Below are positions 7,978-33,071 of a stretch of DNA of 64,000 nt, piece after piece. The translations under genes and the position numbers were made by a program. A model generated the notes under the pieces. The model ran no database searches. It was given only the letters and a program-made list of their open reading frames with translations, and was not told the origin of the DNA. This DNA comes from Promethearchaeota archaeon (GTDB lineage Archaea; Asgardarchaeota; Lokiarchaeia; Sigyniarchaeales; SOKP01): contig JAHLWP010000005.1 of the NCBI GenBank assembly GCA_019057865.1, positions 1 through 64,000 on the forward strand, read 5' to 3'. Positions within the stretch are counted from its first letter, which is position 1. The number at the start of each line of letters is the position of its first letter.

Positions 7978-10269
7978 TTATTCAACTGGTCGAAAAATTC
8001 CTTTTTTTATTAAAGAAAGAATTGCTTCATAATCTTTTGGGGTACACACATTCTCAGGAAGTAAGTAAATAGTATGAAAGTAATTAAATTTATTTTGCTT
8101 CATAAAATCTAAAGCTCTTTTAATCATTTCTTTCTCATTTTGATTTAATTCAGCTTTTTTAGGCATTACGATTTGCAATGGATAAAGTAATGATATATTC
8201 AAATGCTTTTCCACTACATCCTTCATTCCTCGAAATGGTTGGAGATTTCCACTAAATTGATCAATTAATTTACCATAATTTTTGTATATATCATAAGCTA
8301 AAGATTCAATAGAGTATAAAAAGTTCTTAGAAGGATTTTCTTTCATTATTATGATTATTCTTAAATTTACAAATTCAACCATTAAAAGGATTGAGCCACG
8401 ATACTCTAATTTAATTGTTCGTGAGTCCTTAGTTCCTCCCAATACTTTTGTTCCAAAGTTATGCAATGCTTGTAGGTATCCCGCTATTAACGTTAAATCA
8501 AATTCTTTTTCTTCAAATGACTCTGCGTACAAATCAATACCGGATTTTTTATCAAGAACTATGATATATTTTAAATTCATAACATCGGTGCATTCTTCTA
8601 AAATTAGTTTTAATCTTTTTCTACCTCTTGTTTCGCGTTTTTTAAGGGTTGTATAACCTACGAATCCTATAAAAGCAGCAGCAATTACAATAATGCCGAT
8701 AATAAGAAATAATGAAAAATCAGGGGTAGACCCAGTAGAAACCGGGACAGAAGTGATTGTAAAACCTTGTGTTTGAACTCCTCCATCGGTTTGATTATTC
8801 CAATATAAATATGCAATATAGTTTCCTTCTAAAATACCTGAAGGTAAATCATAAGAAAATACATTATCATCAGGTGGAATAATCTTTTTTATTTCAAATT
8901 CAATAGAACCTAGGGGATCAATTAATTGAAATGTATAATTTCCAGGTAAAACAGGCGGGCTAATTGAAAATGCCAATTCTTCACCAACTTCAAATTCAGT
9001 TTTAATAGTATTGATATTAAAGTTAATGTTTGGAGAATAAGCTTTTATTTCCCATTCTGCTCCATCTGTAATTGCAATATTCGGTATGCATAAGAGATTT
9101 TCTATAGGATGGATTGTTACATTATTAGTTATATCTTCTAAATCTCTATAAATTGTAATATTCTCCCATTTTGAAGGATAATAGAATTTTACTGAACAAT
9201 TATTTGAATATCTTGTAATGGAAGGTCTTATTATCCATTCATTAGTAGAATTAACTTTAATTGTTAGTGAAGCAGGAGATGAAAAAATATTATGTGTATT
9301 CAAAAAGTAGTTTACATCGAAAATTAGATTTCCTGAATTATTATAAAAAACAGGAAGGTTAATTTGTTCACTATTAGGAGAAAAATCTAACGCTGTAAGT
9401 GGTAAATTGCCAGAACCTATAGATGACCCATTTTGAATTTCATAATATTCATTATCAATTTCAATTGTCATATTTATATCTTCTGGATAAACAGGAACTT
9501 CCGTTTCTCGAATTAATTTATATAAGAAGGGAGAATTTGATATTCCATTAGTCCAGATTTCGGTGTCAATAAATTGAGAGATTAACAAACTTGGGTATTT
9601 TGGATCAATATCATTATAATACCAATGATATCTATCATCTTCTGGAGCAATGATATTTGAACCATTTAAAACTAAAAAGTAATCTCCTTTTGGTAATGTT
9701 AAAGTTGAGGGGAAGGCTTGTAAATACCATCCTTCCACGTCTGATATATTAATGTCCATAGTCAAATATAGAGTATTATTAGGGATATCATTTACCGCAT
9801 CGTATCCTCTAATTTGAACTTGAATAATTTTAGGGGTAGTTCTAATTTCTTTCTTTCCATAAATGTATACACCTGAAAGTGTCTCGGATTCATTTAATTT
9901 AATTTGTACTGCTAAACCCCGTTGGTTGAAATTATCATTTTGAAAATAAATTTCATAGTATTTTCCAGAATAACTTTTATTTTCAATACTTTCTATCTGT
10001 GTGCCTAAATCTTTTATATTTGTGAAATTTAATTCAATATCTTCTATATTCCATGAAGAAGATGGCAATTTAACATCAATTGAATCCACATTATCATAGA
10101 AACCCTGATTAATTGAATTTTCTACCATTTCAAAATTTAAGTTAATATTGAGAGAATGCTCACTACCATTTGAGGAAATAACATCTAAGTTCTGAAATAA
10201 TACTGTAAATAGACTTAATAAGATTAAGAAAGTAAATCCTCTTTTTAATAAATTTTTTGTCTTCATCAT
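7978..10269 (-). CDS. Receptor-like type I membrane protein (signal peptide, beta-rich ectodomain, TM helix, cytoplasmic longin-like domain); paralog A
   Basis: It has an N-terminal hydrophobic signal, many NxS/T sequons and a single TM (FSLFLIIGIIVIAAAFIGFVGY) followed by KKR. The cytoplasmic part IIVLDKKSGIDLY...LIAGYLQALHNFG...IKLEY....ILL..F..LRIIIIMKE.PS is longin-like. It is collinear with the three genes at 25938-33071. Confidence 0.75.
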   Translation of the reverse strand: MMKTKNLLKRGFTFLILLSLFTVLFQNLDVISSNGSEHSLNINLNFEMVENSINQGFYDNVDSIDVKLPSSSWNIEDIELNFTNIKDLGTQIESIENKSYSGKYYEIYFQNDNFNQRGLAVQIKLNESETLSGVYIYGKKEIRTTPKIIQVQIRGYDAVNDIPNNTLYLTMDINISDVEGWYLQAFPSTLTLPKGDYFLVLNGSNIIAPEDDRYHWYYNDIDPKYPSLLISQFIDTEIWTNGISNSPFLYKLIRETEVPVYPEDINMTIEIDNEYYEIQNGSSIGSGNLPLTALDFSPNSEQINLPVFYNNSGNLIFDVNYFLNTHNIFSSPASLTIKVNSTNEWIIRPSITRYSNNCSVKFYYPSKWENITIYRDLEDITNNVTIHPIENLLCIPNIAITDGAEWEIKAYSPNINFNINTIKTEFEVGEELAFSISPPVLPGNYTFQLIDPLGSIEFEIKKIIPPDDNVFSYDLPSGILEGNYIAYLYWNNQTDGGVQTQGFTITSVPVSTGSTPDFSLFLIIGIIVIAAAFIGFVGYTTLKKRETRGRKRLKLILEECTDVMNLKYIIVLDKKSGIDLYAESFEEKEFDLTLIAGYLQALHNFGTKVLGGTKDSRTIKLEYRGSILLMVEFVNLRIIIIMKENPSKNFLYSIESLAYDIYKNYGKLIDQFSGNLQPFRGMKDVVEKHLNISLLYPLQIVMPKKAELNQNEKEMIKRALDFMKQNKFNYFHTIYLLPENVCTPKDYEAILSLIKKGIFRPVE

Positions 10270-10442
10270 TCCATTTAACTAGATTCTAGTTAAAATTCTT
10301 CTTTCTTATTAAAAAATTTTTGGTTTATATTCTATTATTAATTTTTAATGAAATAATGGATTTAGTATGTTATTTATACGTAAACATAAATAATTGTATT
10401 TTTATTTCATATTTAAAATTATAAAGAGAGATTTTAGGCGAT

Positions 10443-23759: not shown

Positions 23760-25031
23760 TTAGCGCCATTCAGTACCACACTGACCACAGTGGTATTTCT
23801 TACCATAGACTCTTGGATACGCTAAAATAATATGTGTTTTATCAGACATTTCCCGGATGAGTGCTTTATTAGCATTTCCACATTTTGGACATCTGCGCCT
23901 TCCCTCAGAACTTCCTTCTAAAACTGGTTGTTCTTCTTTTTCTAATTCAGGAGAAAGGATTGATTTCAACTCATCGAACGTAGTATGAGAAGAAACAACT
24001 TCTTCTGCCTCAACCTTCAAGATATCGGTATCTAGTGTAATCTTTTCTTCCATTTCCAACGAAGGTTCCGTTAATTGTTCAGTCTCAACTTTTAAAGGTT
24101 TTTGAGTAGGGATCTCAATTTCTTCTTGAGATAGAGGAATTGATATAGCTTCTTTCAAGACTTTTTCATCTTTTTCTTTAAGCCTTATATTTTCATCCTC
24201 AAGAGCGACTACTTGTTCTTGCAAAATAGCGATTTCTTCTTCTAATTGAGCAGTATCGGGTTTTTCAATCTTTAAAAAATCAATATTATTCCTTAACAAA
24301 TTGTTTTCATTCACTAATTCAAAGATTTTCTCATTTTTTTTAAGAATTACATTTTCTAATCTATTAACTTCTTCCATTAAGTTTGCGATAGTATTACGAG
24401 TGCTCTCTAAAAACTCAATATCAGGCGTTTTTTTTTCTGCTTTCATACTATTATCTTTGAGTATCTGATTTTCATTTTCTAATTCTACAATTTTTGCTTC
24501 TAAATCTATAATTTCTTCCTCTAAATACGCAATCGTTGACAGCTCAGTTTTTAAATCTTTGAGATTATTTTTTAACAATCTATTTTCATCTTCTAATTCA
24601 GAAATTTGATTTTTCAATGGTTCAAAGTCCTTTTCTAATCTATCATAATCTTTAGATAAGTTTTCGATTTTTGTAGTATACTCTTTTAAAATCATGGGAT
24701 CAATTGCTTCATCAACATTTTCTTTTTGTTTCGATAATTCGAGATTTATATCATCAAATTTTTTTTGTAAAATTTCACTTTCATAATCTTTCTGAGCTAG
24801 TTCTTTTCGTTGTGAAGAAACCATATTTTTTAAAATTGTAATTTCTTCCGATTCATTTATACTATCGGCGGTAACTTTATCACTTAATTCGGTTCGTGAA
24901 TTCTGTTCTTCTAATTGAGCATTCAATCTATTAATCTCATTATTCAATTTTTCTATTATTTTTTCCAATTCTGCTCTGTTACTTTCTTCTTCTTCAGCTT
25001 TATCAATTAAATCTTTTAAATTTTCGCTCAT
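23760..25031 (-). CDS. Long acidic coiled-coil protein with a C-terminal zinc ribbon
   Basis: About 290 aa of E/K/L heptads and a low-complexity linker, then RRRCPKCGN...YGKKYHCGQCGTEWR. Confidence 0.75.
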   Translation of the reverse strand: MSENLKDLIDKAEEEESNRAELEKIIEKLNNEINRLNAQLEEQNSRTELSDKVTADSINESEEITILKNMVSSQRKELAQKDYESEILQKKFDDINLELSKQKENVDEAIDPMILKEYTTKIENLSKDYDRLEKDFEPLKNQISELEDENRLLKNNLKDLKTELSTIAYLEEEIIDLEAKIVELENENQILKDNSMKAEKKTPDIEFLESTRNTIANLMEEVNRLENVILKKNEKIFELVNENNLLRNNIDFLKIEKPDTAQLEEEIAILQEQVVALEDENIRLKEKDEKVLKEAISIPLSQEEIEIPTQKPLKVETEQLTEPSLEMEEKITLDTDILKVEAEEVVSSHTTFDELKSILSPELEKEEQPVLEGSSEGRRRCPKCGNANKALIREMSDKTHIILAYPRVYGKKYHCGQCGTEWR

Positions 25032-25280
25032 TGTATTAAAATTTCTATAATTTTATTTAAAAATTTCCAATTTTCTAGAATGATAATAAAATTCTAATTA
25101 AAAAATTTAAGGGGACTAGATTAAGAATAAAATAATATGAGTATTGCAGAAATTTAAAAAAATAATTGATTAAATGTCTTATAAATTATATATTAAAGCT
25201 TTAAAAATGTTTAAATATTTACACCTCTTACTTTAAAAATCTTACAATAATAATAAAAAAATTAATGAAAGGTAATTAAA

Positions 25281-25859
25281 ATGGAAGATGTAAGTGCTGA
25301 AGTTTTCTGGAAAAATAAAATTAAAAAATATTGGAAAATATTCGTCATTTGTATAATCGCAGTAATTGTATGTGCTATAGGAGCACTTCTAGTTCTTGTT
25401 TGGTTTATAGAAACCTCTACTCTTGGGGGGCAAGGTGAATGGACTTTTAACGATTGGACATTGAATTATGTTGTTGGCTTTTACATTTTGATAATTCTAT
25501 GGGAGCTATTGTTTATAGGAGTTCCAGCAGCTCTATTTTTTGGTGTAGGAGCATATCTGTGTTGGAAGAGATTACCCGATGAAGAGAAACAAGAATTCAA
25601 AGAAAGAGAAAAGAAGGAAAAGAAAAAATATAAACAGGGTGGCAGTGGTGGAGGCTTTTCCTTTTTTATATTTATAGCATATTGTATCGTTATTGCAATT
25701 GATGGAAACTATAATACCCAATTTGGGCAATTAGATTACAGTTATTTCGTTTATGCTTGGTTTTTTACTATTATGTGGCTTTTGATAATTTTTGGCGTTC
25801 CTGTGGCTATTATACTGTTGATTGTTTATTTTAAAGTATGGAGAAAAAAATCAGAATAA
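25281..25859 (+). CDS. Four-TM membrane protein, function unknown
   Basis: Two TM hairpins separated by a charged, Gly-rich loop (EEKQEFKEREKKEKKK...GGSGGG). Confidence 0.7.
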   Translation: MEDVSAEVFWKNKIKKYWKIFVICIIAVIVCAIGALLVLVWFIETSTLGGQGEWTFNDWTLNYVVGFYILIILWELLFIGVPAALFFGVGAYLCWKRLPDEEKQEFKEREKKEKKKYKQGGSGGGFSFFIFIAYCIVIAIDGNYNTQFGQLDYSYFVYAWFFTIMWLLIIFGVPVAIILLIVYFKVWRKKSE

Positions 25860-25937
25860 AATTTTTTTTATTATAATTTTTTTTTTATATTCTTTTTTTG
25901 TATAGAACCTCTTATAGTCAAGAATAAAAGATGTTAA

Positions 25938-28214
25938 TTATAATTTAGGTTGAAAAACTTTTTTCTTTATCAAATTAAGGATTATTTCGGCCTCTTTTGC
26001 ATCAAAATCCTTTCTTATTGATAAGAGACTAGTTACAGTAAAATAATCCTTGTTCTTCTTTTTCATAATCGCTTTAGCTCGATTTACCATAGATTTTTCA
26101 TAAGACTTAAGTTTTATATCTAGTTTAATTATTTCTAATGGATATATCAAGGCTGTTTGTAAATGTTGTTCAAGTAATTCACCAATACCTTTAAATGGTA
26201 TTAAATTTCCATTAAAACTTTCAATAATATTACCATATCTTTTATCAATATCATAAGATAAAGCTTTAATAGATTCTAAGAAGTCCTGTGAAGGATGTTC
26301 TTTCATAATGAGCAAAATTCTAAAACTCTTAAATTCTGACATTAAGATTTTTGAATCTTGATATTCCAATTTTATTGTCTGAGATTGTTCACCAGCTCCA
26401 GTTAATTCAATACCAAAGCTACGAATTGCTTCAAGAAATCCTGCGACTAATGAAGCATCAATGGATTTGCCAGCTAAAATTTGTTCGTATAAATTTAAAC
26501 CAGACTTCTTATGTGTGATAATAAAATAATCTAAATTTAAAACATCCATATATTTATTAAATATGCTCTGTCTGTATGCCTCATGTTTTCTCTTAGTATT
26601 TTTAACAAGTTTATATGTGGTAAAACTAGCAATTGACAAAACAGCTACAACAGATACTATTATAATAATTAACATTGGATCTAAAACAAATGGAACACTA
26701 ATTTTAAATTCTTGGGTAATTACTCCTGCATCTGTAGCATTATTCCAGAAAATGTAAGCCTTATAAGTTCCCTCATGGGGATTAGATGGAAGTTGATAAG
26801 TAAGTAAGAGTTCCTCCGTTTCGATTGTTTCTATAACATAAGTTATATCTGGTTGAGCTGGATAATCTAGTGGATTAATTAGCCTAAAAGTAATATTTCC
26901 TGGAGGAATTGGAGGCAGAATTGAAAATTGTATTTCTTGACCCGCGCTAAATTTTGTCTTTCGTACATCTAAGGAAGGTTCAATATTTGGAGAATTTGCT
27001 GTGATTTCCCAATCTGTATCCTCTATTATTGTATTATTTGGAAGAAATATAAAATGATTTATTGGATCTTTTATAATATCTGCTGTAATATTCTCCCAAC
27101 CAAACCCTATATCTCTGTATATAGTTAAATTATACCAACTGTTTGGATATATAAATTTAATCGAATAATTAGAATAACATCTATCAAAATTTTGAGTCAT
27201 TATCCAAATATTAGCCAAATTTTCTTTAATTGATATTTCCCATTCTGATTCAAAAATATTTTGAAGTTTGATATGATAACTTAAATTGAATAATAACTCA
27301 GGGACACGATTATTTTCTATTGGTATATTATATATTTCAGATAAAGGAGAAATATCTTTACTGATATTTAATTGACCAGTTCCAGGTTCTGTTCCATTTA
27401 AGATGGGATAATGAATACCATCAATAATTGCACTCATATTAATTTCCTCCGGTTCAAAAGATTTATTTACTCTTTGAATTAATTTATATAATAAAGGTTC
27501 TCCAGTAGCTTCCCAATTCCATTTTGCGCCATCATAGTTTGATGTATTAAGATTAGTATTAATAGAGTCACTATCATTGAAATACCAATTATAAGCTGTT
27601 TTTTCTATGGGAATATTCATTTCTGTTCCATTCATTACCAGATAATATTGGCCAATTAAAAGTGATATTGGGTTTTCGAAGGTTTGGATATACCAATCAA
27701 AACTATTAGTCATATTTATTGGTACTGTTCCATAAATACTATCATCTGGTATGTCTTCTGTGTCATTATACCCGTGTATTTGTATATATGCCGGAATTGA
27801 TGGATCGTCCCCGCTACGAACTCCATATATATATACTCCAAAAATTTCCGTCGGTACAGTAATATTAATTTGAACACCATAGCCTGGTTCTCCTTTATAA
27901 CCTACTGTTTTTGTTTCATCTCCCTCATATTCAATTGTTATAATTTCTTTTCCTAATTTTATATCCGTAAAATTAAACTCCATATTTGTAATGTTCCAAG
28001 TAGTTGATGGTAAAGGAATATCTATTGAACTAACATCTGTACTTGTATTTATATTATCTGAATATTCAATCATTTGTAGATTTGAATTGATTTCAAGGGA
28101 TTCACCATTATTTTGAGCATTAGCAAAATTAGTACTATATATTAGACTTACTAATATAAGTGTTATAAAAGCGATTCCTATCATTAAATTTCTTGGTTTA
28201 TATGCCTTTTCCAA
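25938..28214 (-). CDS. Receptor-like type I membrane protein with a cytoplasmic longin-like domain; paralog B
   Basis: Same architecture as paralog A, with TM LIIIIVSVVAVLSIASFTTY. The cytoplasmic part reads IITHKKSGLNLYEQ...LVAGFLEAIRSFGIEL...TIKLEY.DS.IL. Confidence 0.8.
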   Translation of the reverse strand: MEKAYKPRNLMIGIAFITLILVSLIYSTNFANAQNNGESLEINSNLQMIEYSDNINTSTDVSSIDIPLPSTTWNITNMEFNFTDIKLGKEIITIEYEGDETKTVGYKGEPGYGVQINITVPTEIFGVYIYGVRSGDDPSIPAYIQIHGYNDTEDIPDDSIYGTVPINMTNSFDWYIQTFENPISLLIGQYYLVMNGTEMNIPIEKTAYNWYFNDSDSINTNLNTSNYDGAKWNWEATGEPLLYKLIQRVNKSFEPEEINMSAIIDGIHYPILNGTEPGTGQLNISKDISPLSEIYNIPIENNRVPELLFNLSYHIKLQNIFESEWEISIKENLANIWIMTQNFDRCYSNYSIKFIYPNSWYNLTIYRDIGFGWENITADIIKDPINHFIFLPNNTIIEDTDWEITANSPNIEPSLDVRKTKFSAGQEIQFSILPPIPPGNITFRLINPLDYPAQPDITYVIETIETEELLLTYQLPSNPHEGTYKAYIFWNNATDAGVITQEFKISVPFVLDPMLIIIIVSVVAVLSIASFTTYKLVKNTKRKHEAYRQSIFNKYMDVLNLDYFIITHKKSGLNLYEQILAGKSIDASLVAGFLEAIRSFGIELTGAGEQSQTIKLEYQDSKILMSEFKSFRILLIMKEHPSQDFLESIKALSYDIDKRYGNIIESFNGNLIPFKGIGELLEQHLQTALIYPLEIIKLDIKLKSYEKSMVNRAKAIMKKKNKDYFTVTSLLSIRKDFDAKEAEIILNLIKKKVFQPKL

Positions 28215-31200
28215 ATATAAAACCCTGAAGAATTTAAAAATGAACTAAAATGTCTAGCAATATGATCTAAATTCGTCTATTTAAATTTTGATTTTATTAC
28301 TTATAGGATTCATTAAAATAAGTTGTTTTTATTCAAAATCGAAGAATTGAGAGATTAATAAAGGTTAAATTGCTACTTGAAAAATATTTTTTTCTATTAA
28401 TTTAAGAATAATTTCAAAATCTTTAGGACTGCAAGTTTTTTCAGGTATTAAATCTTTAGTATAAAAGGCATCAGTATTAGTCTTTTTGGTAATCGATATT
28501 GCATTATTAATAAAAGACTTCTCAGTTGGGCTTATTCTGATTTTGTCTAATTTATCTATATTAACAACTTTTAGTGGATATACAATTGAAACATTTAGGT
28601 GTTTCATAAGTAAATCCTCTATACCCTTAAACTTTCGAATATCTCCATTAAATTGATCAATCATATTCCCGTAATTCTTATAGATATCATAAGCTAGATC
28701 TTCAAGGGAATAGAGCAAGTATTTTGATGGACTTTCTTTCATTATTAAGATTAATCTAATATTTACGAATTCACTCACTAGTACAATTGAATCTTTATAT
28801 TCTAATTTTATAGTTTGAGATTGATTTTCAATTTTCATTAGTTCAATTCCAAATGAAGAAATGGCTTGCAAAAATCCAGAAATCAAAGTACCATTAAATT
28901 CTTTAATTGCAAATTTTTGTTCATAAATGCTTAATCCAGAATTCTTATTTGTCACAATAAGATAATCAAGGCTCATAATATCCATACATTTACTGAAAAT
29001 TTTCTGCTCTTCCTCAATTTTTCTGGTTCGAATCTTTTTAATTGTTCTGTATGATATAATGCTAAATGCTGATAATCCTACTGCAAGTAGGACAATTCCA
29101 AAAATAGTTAGTGGATCTAAGGTGAATGGGACTGATTGAACTATTATTTGGAATTTTTGAGTAATTACACCTGCATCCGTAGCATTATTCCAAAAAACAT
29201 AAGCCTTATAATTTCCCTCATGGGGATTAGATGGAAGTGTATAATTTAGTTTAAGATCCTCTGTTTCGATTGAATCTATTACATAAGTTTCATCTGGCTG
29301 AGCGGGATACCCTAAAGTATTAATTAACCTAAAAGTAATATTTCCTGGAGGAATTGGAGGCAGAACAGAAAATTGTATTTCTTGACCCGGGTTAAACTTT
29401 TCTTTTTGTACATCGTAAGGAAGTTGAATATTTGGAGAATTTGCTGTGATTTCCCAATCTGTATCCTCTATTATTGTATTATTTGGAAGAAATATAAAAT
29501 GATTTATTGGATCTTTTATAATATCACTTGTAATATTTTCCCATCCAGTTCCACTGTTTCTATATATAGTTATATTATACCAACTGTTTGGATAAATAAA
29601 TTTAATAGAATAATTACAATAATATCGTGAAATTTCAGGATTTAAAGTCCAAATATTGGCAGGATTCTCTTGAATGAATACAAAACCTTCGGTATTTAAG
29701 AAATTTTGTAATTTAATATGAAAACTTAGATTAAATAATAATTCAATTGATCGATTATTATAGATTGGTATATTAAAAACATCACTATTGGGAGAGATAT
29801 TTTTATTCACAGTAATACTTCCATTTCCACTAATTGGAAATAACGATCCATCAATATCTAATGTCATATTTATCTCTTCAGGATTAAATGATCTATCTAC
29901 TCTTTGGATTAGTTTATATAGAAGAGGTTTACCTACATCTTCTTCAGACCATACCCCGCCATCATAAACGGCTGTATGTAAATTGGTGTTTATAGATCCA
30001 CTACCATTAAATAACCAATTGTAATCTGATTTGTCAGTAGGAAAAGTTAATTCTGATCCGTTAATTACTAAATAATAGTTTCCTGGAGAGAGTGAGACTT
30101 CATATTCAAAAATTTGTTGATGCCAACCTGGAGTAGAAATATTTATTACGGTATTTCCTAGAATATTTTCATCTGGAGAATTGGTTGAAATATTATATCC
30201 TTGTATTTGAACATATACTGGTTTAACTGGAGTCCCAGTTATATAGCCATAGATATAAACACCAAATAGTATAGTAGGCTCAATAATATTGATTTCAACA
30301 CCATACCCTAATTTACCCCTTGAATCTATTCTATGAATACTTGTACCGCTTTCTTCAACGGGTTTTATTTCTTTACCTAATTTTACATCTGTAAAATTCA
30401 TTTCAATATATGTTATATTCCATGAAACACATGGTAATGAAATATCTATTGATCTTATTCCACTATTTGTATTTATATTATCTGCAAATTCAAGCATCGG
30501 GAAATTTGAATGGGTTTCAAGGATTTCATCATTATTCTGAGCATTAGCAAAATTAGTACTATATATTAAACTTAGGAATAAAAGTGTTATGAAAGCAAAT
30601 CCTATTATAAAATTTCTTGATTTATATACCTTTTTCAAATACAAATCCCTGAAGATTTTAGATTATACAAAAATGTTATCAAGAAATATAATTTCAATTA
30701 ATCTATTTAAATATTGATTTTATTACTTATAGGATTCATCGACAATAAGTCGTATTTACTCAAAATCGAAGAATTGGAGGGATTAATAAACTTGAAAAAT
30801 ATTTTTCTCTATTAATTTAAGAATGAGTTCAATATCTTTGGGACTGCAAGTTTTTTCAGGTATTAAGTCTTTAATATAAAAGAATTCAGTACTACTTTTA
30901 TTCATAATTGATATTGCAGTATTTATAACAGACTTTTCAGCGGGGTTAATTCTAATTTTCTCTAATTTATCTATATTAACAAGTTTTAGAGGATATACTA
31001 TTGAAACATTTAGGTGCTTTATAAGTAAATCCTCTATACCCTTAAATTGTCGAATATCTCCATTAAATTGATCAATCATATTCCCGTAATTCTTATAAGT
31101 ATCATAAGCTAGATCTTCAAGGGAATAGAGCAAGTATTTTGATGGACTTTCTTTCATTATTAAAATTAATCTAACATTTACAAATTCACTCATTAATACA

Positions 31201-31575
31201 ATTGAATCTTTATATTCTAATTTTATAGTCTGAGATTGATTTTCAACTTTCATTAGTTCAATTCCAAATGAAGAAAGAGCTTGTAGAAACCCAGAAATTA
31301 AAGTTCCATTTAAATCTTTACTTGTAAATTTTTGTTCATAAACACTTAATCCAGATCTCTTATTTGTTACAATAAGATAATCTAAGTTCATAATGTCCAT
31401 ACATTTACTGAAGATTTTCTGCTCGTCCTCAATTTTTCTGGTTCGAATCTTTTTAATTGTTCTATATGATAAAATACTGAATGCTGATAATCCTACTGCA
31501 AGTAGGACAATTCCAAAAATGGTCAGCGGATCCATGGTGAATGGGACTGATGGAACTATTATTTGGAATTCTTGA
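26707..31575. repeat. Diverged ~2.4-kb tandem direct duplication (units ~26707-29155 and ~29155-31575) offset relative to gene boundaries
   Basis: A 99-bp block is identical at 26982-27080 and 29427-29525. Cytoplasmic-domain DNA is near-identical at ~28640-28750 and ~31055-31165. The intergenic spacers 28215-28364 and 30645-30782 are homologous (both contain TGATTTTATTACTTATAGGATTCAT and CAAAATCGAAGAATTG). Confidence 0.85.
28365..30644 (-). CDS. Receptor-like type I membrane protein with a cytoplasmic longin-like domain; paralog C (chimera of a B-like ectodomain and a D-like TM/endodomain)
   Basis: The ectodomain shares IYSTNFANAQNN, DIIKDPINHFIFLPNNTIIEDTDWEITANSPNI and LPSNPHEG with B. The TM and cytoplasmic part share DPLTIFGIVLLAVGLSAFSI.SYRTIKKIRTRKIE and everything downstream with D. 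Confidence 0.8.
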   Translation of the reverse strand: MYLKKVYKSRNFIIGFAFITLLFLSLIYSTNFANAQNNDEILETHSNFPMLEFADNINTNSGIRSIDISLPCVSWNITYIEMNFTDVKLGKEIKPVEESGTSIHRIDSRGKLGYGVEINIIEPTILFGVYIYGYITGTPVKPVYVQIQGYNISTNSPDENILGNTVINISTPGWHQQIFEYEVSLSPGNYYLVINGSELTFPTDKSDYNWLFNGSGSINTNLHTAVYDGGVWSEEDVGKPLLYKLIQRVDRSFNPEEINMTLDIDGSLFPISGNGSITVNKNISPNSDVFNIPIYNNRSIELLFNLSFHIKLQNFLNTEGFVFIQENPANIWTLNPEISRYYCNYSIKFIYPNSWYNITIYRNSGTGWENITSDIIKDPINHFIFLPNNTIIEDTDWEITANSPNIQLPYDVQKEKFNPGQEIQFSVLPPIPPGNITFRLINTLGYPAQPDETYVIDSIETEDLKLNYTLPSNPHEGNYKAYVFWNNATDAGVITQKFQIIVQSVPFTLDPLTIFGIVLLAVGLSAFSIISYRTIKKIRTRKIEEEQKIFSKCMDIMSLDYLIVTNKNSGLSIYEQKFAIKEFNGTLISGFLQAISSFGIELMKIENQSQTIKLEYKDSIVLVSEFVNIRLILIMKESPSKYLLYSLEDLAYDIYKNYGNMIDQFNGDIRKFKGIEDLLMKHLNVSIVYPLKVVNIDKLDKIRISPTEKSFINNAISITKKTNTDAFYTKDLIPEKTCSPKDFEIILKLIEKNIFQVAI

Positions 31576-33071
31576 GATTGAACTCCTGCATCTGTTTCAT
31601 CATTCCAATAAATCTCTATAGTGTATTCTCCTTCACGGAAACTTGTTGGTATTATAAATGAAAATAAAATTTCGTCTGAAGTCACTTCTCTATTTAATTC
31701 AATAATCTCGATAAAATTTCCTGGTTTTATTAAAATAAATGTAAGATTGCCTTGTATTATTGGAACTTCAACTGAAAATTGTAGGTCTTGTTCTGGTTTA
31801 TATTCAGAAAATAGTCCCTTTATCTCGAAATAAATATTCGGTGAATTTGCTGTGATTTTCCAGTCTGCTTCCTCTATTGTTATATTGTTTGGAAGAATGA
31901 TTATATGATATAATGGATCTATTATAATATCTGAAGTAATATTTTCCCAACCAGTTCCAGTATCCCTATATATAGTTAAATTTTGCCAACTTGCAGGATA
32001 TTCAAATTTAACTGTATAATTAGATGAAAACCTAGAAAACTCAGGAAAAATATTCCATTCATTATTAGAATCTGAAATTATTACAGAACCTTCTGAAAGA
32101 AAGGTGTTTCTTAAATTAATGCTATATTTAACGTTAAAACCTAAATCAGACATTAAATTATTTGTAATTGGAATAGATATTACATCAGTATTCAGAGAAA
32201 AGTTCATATTTAAATTTAGATTTCCAGTTCCATAACTACTACCATTTATAATTGGGAAATAATTTTTATCTATTTCAGCAGACATATTAATCTCTTCTGG
32301 AAAAACTTCTTTTGTAATTTTTTGATCTAATTTGTATAGAAACGTTTCTCCAGTTATACCATTTACCCAATCTATATCATATCCCCATGAAAATAAATTT
32401 GGATTATTTGGATTAATATCATTGATTTCCCAATAATATTTTGCCCCATCAGAAGGACCCATTTCTAAACCATTCACAATTAAATAATAATATCCTTTAG
32501 TGATATGTATAGAAGAAGGAAAACTTTGGGAATACCATTTTGTTTCACTTGACATATTTAATACAACTGATCCATAAACTGTTTCATTTGGTTTATTTGT
32601 TGGATTATCATAGCCATTTATTTGAACTTTTATAGTAGTTGTTGTAGCTGGGTTAGATTCATACCCATAAATTTGCACTCCAAAAACATCAGTAGGCTCT
32701 GTAATATTAATTTGGATTGCATATGCTTTATCCCATTTATCTAATTCTCTCGAATGACCAACTCCAATGCTTTCAATTTCTCGTATCTCACGTTTAAATT
32801 CAATATTCGTAAAATTTAACTCAATATTAGTAAGATCCCACTTAGATGAATTTAATGGAATCTCAATTGAACTAACATTGTTAATGTTATCTCTAATATT
32901 CGCGTATTCAGTCATTTCAAAATTAAGATTAATTGGCGGAGATTCGCCATTAATTTGAGCGTTGGAAAAAGTTATGAGATTATTTAAAAAAAATAGAAAT
33001 GATAATAAAACTAATATGATTACAACAACGTTTTTTGATTTTGATATAGCTTTTTCCATAAAATTGATCAA
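30783..33071 (-). CDS. Receptor-like type I membrane protein with a cytoplasmic longin-like domain; paralog D
   Basis: Same signal peptide, ectodomain, TM and longin-like layout as paralogs A-C. The start may be the ATG at 33059. Confidence 0.8.
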   Translation of the reverse strand: MINFMEKAISKSKNVVVIILVLLSFLFFLNNLITFSNAQINGESPPINLNFEMTEYANIRDNINNVSSIEIPLNSSKWDLTNIELNFTNIEFKREIREIESIGVGHSRELDKWDKAYAIQINITEPTDVFGVQIYGYESNPATTTTIKVQINGYDNPTNKPNETVYGSVVLNMSSETKWYSQSFPSSIHITKGYYYLIVNGLEMGPSDGAKYYWEINDINPNNPNLFSWGYDIDWVNGITGETFLYKLDQKITKEVFPEEINMSAEIDKNYFPIINGSSYGTGNLNLNMNFSLNTDVISIPITNNLMSDLGFNVKYSINLRNTFLSEGSVIISDSNNEWNIFPEFSRFSSNYTVKFEYPASWQNLTIYRDTGTGWENITSDIIIDPLYHIIILPNNITIEEADWKITANSPNIYFEIKGLFSEYKPEQDLQFSVEVPIIQGNLTFILIKPGNFIEIIELNREVTSDEILFSFIIPTSFREGEYTIEIYWNDETDAGVQSQEFQIIVPSVPFTMDPLTIFGIVLLAVGLSAFSILSYRTIKKIRTRKIEDEQKIFSKCMDIMNLDYLIVTNKRSGLSVYEQKFTSKDLNGTLISGFLQALSSFGIELMKVENQSQTIKLEYKDSIVLMSEFVNVRLILIMKESPSKYLLYSLEDLAYDTYKNYGNMIDQFNGDIRQFKGIEDLLIKHLNVSIVYPLKLVNIDKLEKIRINPAEKSVINTAISIMNKSSTEFFYIKDLIPEKTCSPKDIELILKLIEKNIFQVY

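Follow-up and report, generated by a model that had tools for sequence, protein, structure and literature searches.

Gene C, the middle one of three tandem genes for predicted membrane proteins of a Promethearchaeota archaeon, is a genuine inherited hybrid gene, the outer part of which is of the type of one neighbour, gene B, and the inner part, with a predicted longin-fold domain, of the type of the other neighbour, gene D. The genes lie in a stretch of 64,000 nucleotides (nt) (assembly GCA_019057865.1, contig JAHLWP010000005.1, positions 1-64,000, forward strand), which was analysed as a whole and is called the window here, and whose guanine-cytosine content is ~29%. B, C and D are tandem paralogs arranged head to tail, all on the minus strand, with open reading frames (ORFs) of 758-762 codons and start-to-start periods of 2415-2445 nt, and their homologs are "hypothetical proteins" of Promethearchaeota/Lokiarchaeota type. 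Syntenic loci of relatives contain two such genes, of which the first is D-like and is named "up" and the second is B-like and is named "down". An origin of gene C by unequal crossover between the down and the up gene of a two-gene locus, amended by the participation of diverged haplotypes or by the exchange of one ectodomain cassette, is considered probable, with a probability of about 0.8.

Mosaic structure of gene C and its occurrence in relatives

In sliding windows, B and C share 79-99% of their nucleotides over gene positions 1-180 and 1036-1490 and 51-69% thereafter, and the identity between C and D rises from 47-62% to 81-98% from ~position 1530 through the stop codon. Informative sites, at which B differs from D and C shares the nucleotide of one or the other, number 754 in the B/C/D triplet; C agrees with B at 358 of the 487 sites located 5' of the break and at 23 of the 267 sites located 3' of it. 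The maximum chi-square statistic was 290.6, a value reached in 0 of 2000 permutations (highest value 23.2), and its best split falls between window positions 29162 and 29160. The codon alignment confines the exchange to 9 nt, window 29152-29160, with ATTACT (ITQ) as the last down-type signature, TTC CAA ATA ATA (F-Q-I-I) as the first up-type signature and, on the up-type side, a 9-nt insertion restricted to up-type genes. An earlier inspection of the same DNA from its letters and reading frames (the sequence-only reading) had already described an ectodomain of C that matches B, a remainder that matches D and a switch at ~29152-29161, all of which agrees with these results; the positions that it had matched to the two sides of the switch, 31555-31576 and 26716-26747, are explained by the offsets between repeats, +2415 from C to D and -2445 from C to B, in repeat families D3, D4 and D6.

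Trees of B, C, D and 25 relatives drawn from syntenic loci disagree on the position of gene C in the way that had been predicted, that is with B and C together for the ectodomain and C and D together for the endodomain, with support of 99-100%. In the ectodomain tree C is placed within the down clade with B, L010_down and the second genes of two-gene arrays (99/99), and D is grouped with L010_up and the first genes (100/100). The endodomain tree is divided deeply and cleanly into an up and a down class, with C in a shallow up group together with D and L010_up (100/100) and B together with L010_down (100/100). Congruent trees were rejected by the approximately unbiased (AU) test, in which forcing the C ectodomain into the D group cost 132 log-likelihood units (p = 1.8e-7) and forcing the C endodomain into the down class cost 30 log-likelihood units (p = 0.005).

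The comparison of array copy number in related genomes agrees with an ancestral D-B pair, as the sequence-only reading had assumed. Thirteen complete syntenic two-gene loci, in the order up then down, were found in relatives (L010, L049, L050, L051 and L053/L054, and those of the genus relatives G003, G004, G007, G011, G013, G014 and G016), and G017 has an additional two-gene locus in which the up gene is cut by the contig end. The arrays share their flanks, a sulfatase gene and a gene of 125-132 amino acids on one side and genes of 192-195 and 423 amino acids on the other. Apart from the window, three genes occur in only two assemblies, G012 and L009, which are collinear with the window, have the identical junction (G012_C, L009_C) and are 90% and 94% identical to it, respectively, in nucleotides over the array. 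The hybrid is thus inherited in three assemblies; its ORF is intact in all of them, and the ratio of nonsynonymous to synonymous divergence (omega) of ~0.25 in the endodomain between C orthologs indicates that gene C is under purifying selection.

Origin of the hybrid and history of the ectodomain cassettes

The spacers D-C and C-B are homologous over their full length (~72% overall, with blocks of 87-91%), and each can be aligned from one end to the other with the one spacer that a two-gene array has; a second novel junction is absent. The duplicated unit comprises an up endodomain, the spacer and a down ectodomain, continuous through the spacer. Both the homology of the spacers and a duplicated unit of endodomain, spacer and next ectodomain in place of a whole gene had been proposed in the sequence-only reading, and both hold. 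Given these spacer alignments, one unequal crossover of the anti-Lepore type would be the simplest origin. Twelve nucleotides are deleted at the extreme 3' end of gene D (window 30783-30800) and of its ortholog in L009, so that the protein ends in FQVY instead of FQVAI, and the spacer downstream of D (and of the L009 ortholog) is only ~70% identical to the spacers of two-gene arrays, compared with 91-92% for the C-B spacer.

The mechanism and the haplotype origin that we infer for the exchange would begin with an ancestral locus of two tandem paralogs, up and down, types which are distinct in their cytoplasmic domains across the whole genus. By unequal homologous exchange, the down gene of one copy of the locus would have paired with the up gene of another, and the exchange would have been resolved within 9 nt of the juxtamembrane stalk, beside the longest run of identity between up and down genes. 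This run of 19-20 nt, which encodes W-N-N-A-T-D-A, is the longest exact up/down identity in three of the five up/down pairs compared and ends ~15 nt 5' of the exchange. The product would be a duplication in the order up gene, spacer, down ectodomain joined to up endodomain, spacer, down gene, and gene C would thereby have retained the promoter region, signal peptide and ectodomain of down type and gained the transmembrane helix and longin-fold cytoplasmic domain of up type. The spacer D-C contains a conserved AT-rich TTTAAATA block, which is a putative promoter. In the structure models the junction is found between the last beta-strand of the ectodomain and the transmembrane helix, where a join should be structurally harmless.

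The similarity of the B and C ectodomains is uneven, a feature not mentioned in the sequence-only reading: residues 60-342 are mismatched at 35.7% and the flanks at 13-15%. A two-change-point fit gave B-C mismatches of 14.6, 35.7 and 13.0%, with the divergent block at 29621-30467 in C and 27176-28043 in B. Synonymous divergence (dS) between B and C is 0.20 for residues 1-60, 1.21 for residues 61-340 and 0.34 for residues 341-496, and that between the C and D endodomains is 0.29; the duplicated segments are not of equal age by this measure, with dS of 0.20-0.34 in the flanks versus 1.21 in the distal cassette. Fast protein evolution was ruled out as the cause of the low distal identity between B and C, since synonymous divergence is saturated (dS 1.2, omega 0.3), and to judge from the synonymous sites the distal difference is an old divergence and not a fast adaptation.

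Two allele classes of the distal cassette were recognized. The B-type class includes B and its orthologs and the down genes of L049, L050, L051 and L052 (mutual dS 0.06-0.34), and the C-type class includes C and its orthologs and the down genes of L053 (dS 0.37) and L010 (0.60), both classes being present in two-gene arrays too. In a tree of the distal module, obtained by a quicker method with single-test support, the B-type class forms a 100%-supported clade on a long stem and the C-type class is placed with down genes of other species.

Several points weigh against the unequal crossover or limit what can be built on it. One event in one genome could not yield a distal cassette at dS 1.2 together with 0.2-0.3 elsewhere; with these values either a second event or a cross of diverged haplotypes is therefore needed, and the data do not separate these two. 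The proposal that an ancestral D-B pair recombined just outside the transmembrane helix is accordingly retained for the junction, the parents and the duplicated unit, and was found insufficient as a single crossover in one genome. A clear single gene with up ectodomain and down endodomain, which would be the reciprocal product, was not seen among the 120 homologs scored, in a search that was seeded with C and is biased for this purpose. Both the genome of the window, in 87 contigs, and those loci that are metagenome contigs come from fragmentary assemblies, and strain mixing could blur the fine mosaic, hardly the junction. Finally, one exchange cannot establish the transmembrane junction as a preferred site.

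Unequal exchange between two diverged versions of the locus would be the simplest full account. One locus would have given D, the spacer and a down ectodomain of C-type, and the other an up endodomain, the spacer and a down gene of B-type. The dS values flanking the junction (0.34 and 0.29) lie within the range of 0.18-0.49 that flanking genes give as background dS between these genomes. Alternatively, the crossover would have been intragenomic, with one cassette replaced later. The recombining copies of the locus would have carried different old alleles of the distal cassette, or one cassette would have been swapped soon after, and the array now holds both.

Identity between the three-gene arrays is itself patchy. 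The window is 100% identical to L009 over ~24200-27630 and 85-97% identical around that stretch, and it is 97-100% identical to G012 over 28683-30300. Over 31524-31800, the membrane-proximal ectodomain of D, identity to L009 falls to 65-71% and identity to G012 climbs to 95-99%; the drop against L009 begins at the ectodomain/endodomain junction of D, a second discontinuity at the equivalent position of another gene. The stretch of 3.4 kb shared with L009 comprises the 423-amino acid gene, the 192-amino acid gene and the endodomain and proximal ectodomain of B, and its identity may be due either to recombination between lineages in the very recent past or to the mixing of strains during metagenome assembly. 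In G014 and G016 the down genes (L046, G014:C201, 2480-4795, and L047, G016:C6, 4643-6958) carry an up-type distal module, at alignment columns ~61-420, on a signal peptide, proximal domain and endodomain of down type. This pattern reads in the alignment as another module swap, independent of the first, whose 3' boundary is the distal/proximal border and not the membrane. Taken together, the patchy identities suggest module-wise exchange, and strain mixing in the assemblies could contribute to the fine pattern between genomes.

This patchiness, with distal cassettes whose histories are unlike those of their flanks, the up-type distal module in the down genes of G014 and G016 and the jumps of between-genome identity along the array, would also be expected if a whole gene had been duplicated (for example, to up-down-down) and a conversion tract from the up gene had then covered the middle gene from the stalk to past the stop codon. 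Such a history is nevertheless rather unlikely: the resemblance of C to the up type does not end at its stop codon but extends over all of the downstream spacer and into the gene after it, no duplication junction of its own is seen in either spacer, and the C endodomain is not nearer to its own D than to the D of other genomes (dS 0.29 vs 0.24-0.26), while a tract of that length would be indistinguishable from a crossover product and would cost one more event. Ongoing within-genome conversion between the C and D endodomains was ruled out on the same comparison, in which foreign D genes are at least as close to C as its own D is.

It is distinctly improbable that the three-gene array is ancestral and that the two-gene arrays were formed by repeated collapse, although collapse is mechanically easy between repeats that are 85-90% identical and would explain two-gene arrays with either cassette, crossover between the D and C endodomains giving arrays of B-type and crossover between the C and B ectodomains giving a C-type distal cassette on a down endodomain. 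In every more distant species of the genus that was searched the locus holds two genes, whose endodomains fall cleanly into the up and the down class; the C endodomain nests in the shallow D/L010_up group (dS ~0.25) and not at the depth of the cassette split; and a clear pattern of down ectodomain with up endodomain was seen only in C and its L009 ortholog among the 120 database homologs scored (which do not include the G012 copy). An assembly artefact, in which strain variants or the two paralogs would have been joined into a chimera during metagenome assembly and which the sequence-only reading had named as a possible source of a false hybrid, is very unlikely and the least probable of these explanations, because the same join would need three origins on sequences 6-10% apart at a repeat of ~20 nt: although the window genome is fragmentary (87 contigs, 5% contamination) and its abrupt 100%/90% identity switches against L009 may in part be due to strain mixing, three assemblies that differ by 6-10% in nucleotides (the two others at 90-94% identity) agree in gene order and junction, the identity shared by up and down genes at the junction, only ~20 nt, is below the usual k-mer length of assembly, and the reading frame is intact and subject to purifying selection.

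Table 1. Features of the array and its relatives in the window (all coordinates in window positions).
Feature	Position	Strand	Description	Basis
Gene D	30783-33071	-	Up type: up ectodomain and up endodomain; 5'-most gene of the array	ORF; both trees with L010_up and first genes of two-gene arrays
Spacer D-C	30645-30782	-	Shares homology with spacer C-B and with the one spacer of two-gene arrays	End-to-end alignment; repeat families D12 and D19
Gene C, whole ORF	28365-30644	-	Hybrid; middle gene of the array
Gene C, ectodomain part	29161-30644	-	Residues 1-495, down type; signal peptide, distal module and membrane-proximal module
Gene C, distal ectodomain cassette	29621-30467	-	Residues ~60-342, C-type allele class	Two-change-point fit; dS; distal-module tree
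Gene C, homology island W-N-N-A-T-D-A	29173-29192	-	Copies in B at 26728-26747 and in D at 31588-31607	Repeat family D6; alignment
Crossover interval	29152-29160	-	9 nt (TCAARAATT) in the juxtamembrane stalk, between last ectodomain strand and transmembrane helix
Gene C, endodomain part	28365-29151	-	Up type; stalk, transmembrane helix, long helix, predicted longin-fold domain and C-terminal alpha/beta subdomain
Gene C, transmembrane helix	~29049-29111	-
Gene C, predicted longin-fold domain	~28584-28988	-		Model with predicted local distance difference test score (pLDDT) of 82.5; longin fold at Z 11.3
Spacer C-B	28215-28364	-	91-92% identical to spacers of two-gene arrays L010 and L049
Gene B	25938-28214	-	Down type: down ectodomain with B-type distal cassette, down endodomain
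Gene B, counterpart of the C cassette	27176-28043	-	B-type allele class
Fourth paralog	7990-10272	-	Distal from the array; 41% identical to C; taken as outgroup

Predicted architecture and cytoplasmic longin fold

The B, C and D proteins start with an N-terminal hydrophobic, signal-like helix that ends in ANAQ, followed by an all-beta ectodomain of ~460 residues (model pLDDT 91), a single transmembrane helix and then a basic stretch. N-glycosylation sequons number 14-20 in the ectodomain (18 in that of C) versus 0-4 in the rest of the protein. In these features the proteins look like type I membrane proteins with a glycosylated ectodomain, one transmembrane helix and a cytoplasmic longin-fold domain. 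The model of the cytoplasmic part has the order beta-beta-alpha-beta-beta-beta-alpha (pLDDT 82.5) and was matched to the longin structures of Sec22 (Z 11.3), VAMP7 (Z 11.1) and the Lokiarchaeota longin 8yqg (Z 10.9), with further structural matches to AP sigma/mu, sedlin, Mon1-Ccz1 and SRX; Foldseek matches to longin domains had E of ~1e-4, and on the basis of these models the endodomain is predicted to have the longin fold.

At the sequence level, Pfam gave no hit at E <= 1 for the B, C and D proteins and nothing relevant for their conserved neighbours, membership in the longin/roadblock sequence profiles was not obtained, and the endodomain alignment, used as a profile against PDB sequences, returned only a weak unrelated match, Ssr1698 (E 0.06). 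In a protein-atlas search the endodomain matched only unnamed Asgard clusters, with faint TrmB/helix-turn-helix leads for the C-terminal subdomain. For the ectodomain, Foldseek found only generic multi-domain beta-sandwich matches with low template-modelling scores (Eph ectodomains, phage baseplate proteins and complement), which do not point to any particular class of ligand. Neither an enzymatic nor a known signalling domain was recognized in these proteins, and the Rfam search of the window gave no match.

The same cytoplasmic module is found elsewhere in this genome, at 21-25% identity, behind larger ectodomains and in soluble proteins. The copies (G000:C54:42765-46322, L056; G000:C66, L055; G000:C75:109877-110611, L057; and G000:C28, L058) occur in contexts that include an ectodomain of ~880 residues with 31 sequons, an ORF of 1913 codons, and soluble proteins of 244 and 462 residues without a transmembrane helix.

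Co-folding of the cytoplasmic domains of D and B gave a score of 0.46 versus 0.03 for the best of three controls, a result graded as weak support, with at least 64% of contacts in agreement between runs and a partner pLDDT of at least 77. In the calibration, 58 of the 80 solved complexes attained the mark used, as did 2 of the 110 mismatches, and scores of 0.60 or lower comprise only 7 of those 80 complexes and both of the mismatches that passed; moreover, the two chains are paralogs with 47% identity, and a pass cannot separate a heterodimer from a homodimer. The proteins may be receptors at the cell surface, with longin domains that form dimers or provide a docking site for a partner. They are receptor-like in architecture, and the labels "sensor" and "output", which the sequence-only reading had applied to the ecto- and endodomain types, are guesses from this architecture. 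It is speculative, and as a whole unlikely, that the longin domains bring up and down proteins together into surface receptors that are obligate heterodimers, and that the proteins are built of three exchangeable modules (distal cassette, proximal domain and endodomain), the conserved boundaries of which, including the W-N-N-A-T-D-A island, would be recurrent recombination sites. Were this so, hybrid C would enable a cell to present a second allele of the down ectodomain, carried on an up partner, and combinatorial receptor diversification would exist in the closest archaeal relatives of eukaryotes, feeding signalling of the longin/GTPase type.

Comparison with known systems and neighbouring genes

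Hybrid genes produced by unequal crossover between tandem paralogs are known from anti-Lepore haemoglobin, the red/green opsins, the glycophorins and KIR. The array described here resembles anti-Lepore in its tandem paralogs of the same orientation, in the single in-frame switch, in the order of parent 1, hybrid and parent 2, in a duplicated unit made of the 3' part of gene 1, the spacer and the 5' part of gene 2, and in an exchange located in a short shared patch. It differs in that the host is an Asgard archaeon and not a diploid eukaryote, so that the pairing partners would be genome copies or imported DNA and not meiotic homologs; its parents are only ~57% identical in protein, with a shared patch of ~20 nt, and the parental arrays seem to have carried different old ectodomain alleles. 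The sequence-only reading had likened the array to eukaryotic receptor gene clusters, a likeness that holds as an analogy of mechanism and goes no further.

Chimeric surface-protein genes are also found in bacteria, such as babA/babB of Helicobacter and the emm-like genes of streptococci. In these, as in the present array, recombination between paralogs reassorts an exposed variable part relative to a conserved part; however, their variation is due chiefly to gene conversion or deletion and arises over the course of an infection, whereas hybrid C is fixed and inherited in at least three diverged genomes and the part swapped is the cytoplasmic domain.

In eukaryotes, small GTPases and SNAREs use the longin fold as a platform. 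The predicted order of the fold in the endodomain is shared with longin proteins (Sec22, VAMP7, the N-terminal domains of AP sigma/mu, TRAPP sedlin, Mon1-Ccz1, SRX of SR-alpha and the Lokiarchaeota roadblock-longin 8yqg), with Z of 9-11.3 over ~115-136 residues. In contrast to these proteins, the B, C and D endodomains have no sequence-level match in Pfam or PDB, are placed by a type I anchor below a large glycosylated ectodomain and have an extra C-terminal subdomain; longin SNAREs, for comparison, are tail-anchored. This membrane-anchored architecture was not found described in the literature searched on Asgard longin and roadblock proteins, which is no proof of its absence.

A hybrid formed by unequal crossover in a tandem array is a textbook mechanism, and what is new is a well-resolved Asgard case in an uncharacterised family with a predicted fold of eukaryote type. 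The case is unusually clean, with a breakpoint of 9 nt, an ancestral two-gene state kept in relatives and a hybrid that is inherited and subject to selection in three diverged genomes, and it concerns a family that joins a variable glycosylated ectodomain to a predicted cytoplasmic longin-fold domain. It represents a natural domain swap: the endodomain classes are kept apart across the genus, yet a down ectodomain apparently works on an up endodomain, which suggests that ectodomain and endodomain are separable modules. For experimenters, the hybrid shows where these proteins can be cut and recombined.

Some further features of the family and its surroundings were observed. Separate copies comparable to the lone fourth paralog of the window (7990-10272) occur in several genomes of the genus, and the family thus has a conserved lone member besides the tandem pair. 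At L052 (4588-6841), two extra genes of 379 and 363 amino acids, with no Pfam hit on record, are inserted between the down gene and the conserved 195-amino acid neighbour. At L010 (3522-6715), two tandem sulfatase genes are found beside the array, where the window has one, with dS to the window gene of 0.18 and 1.98.

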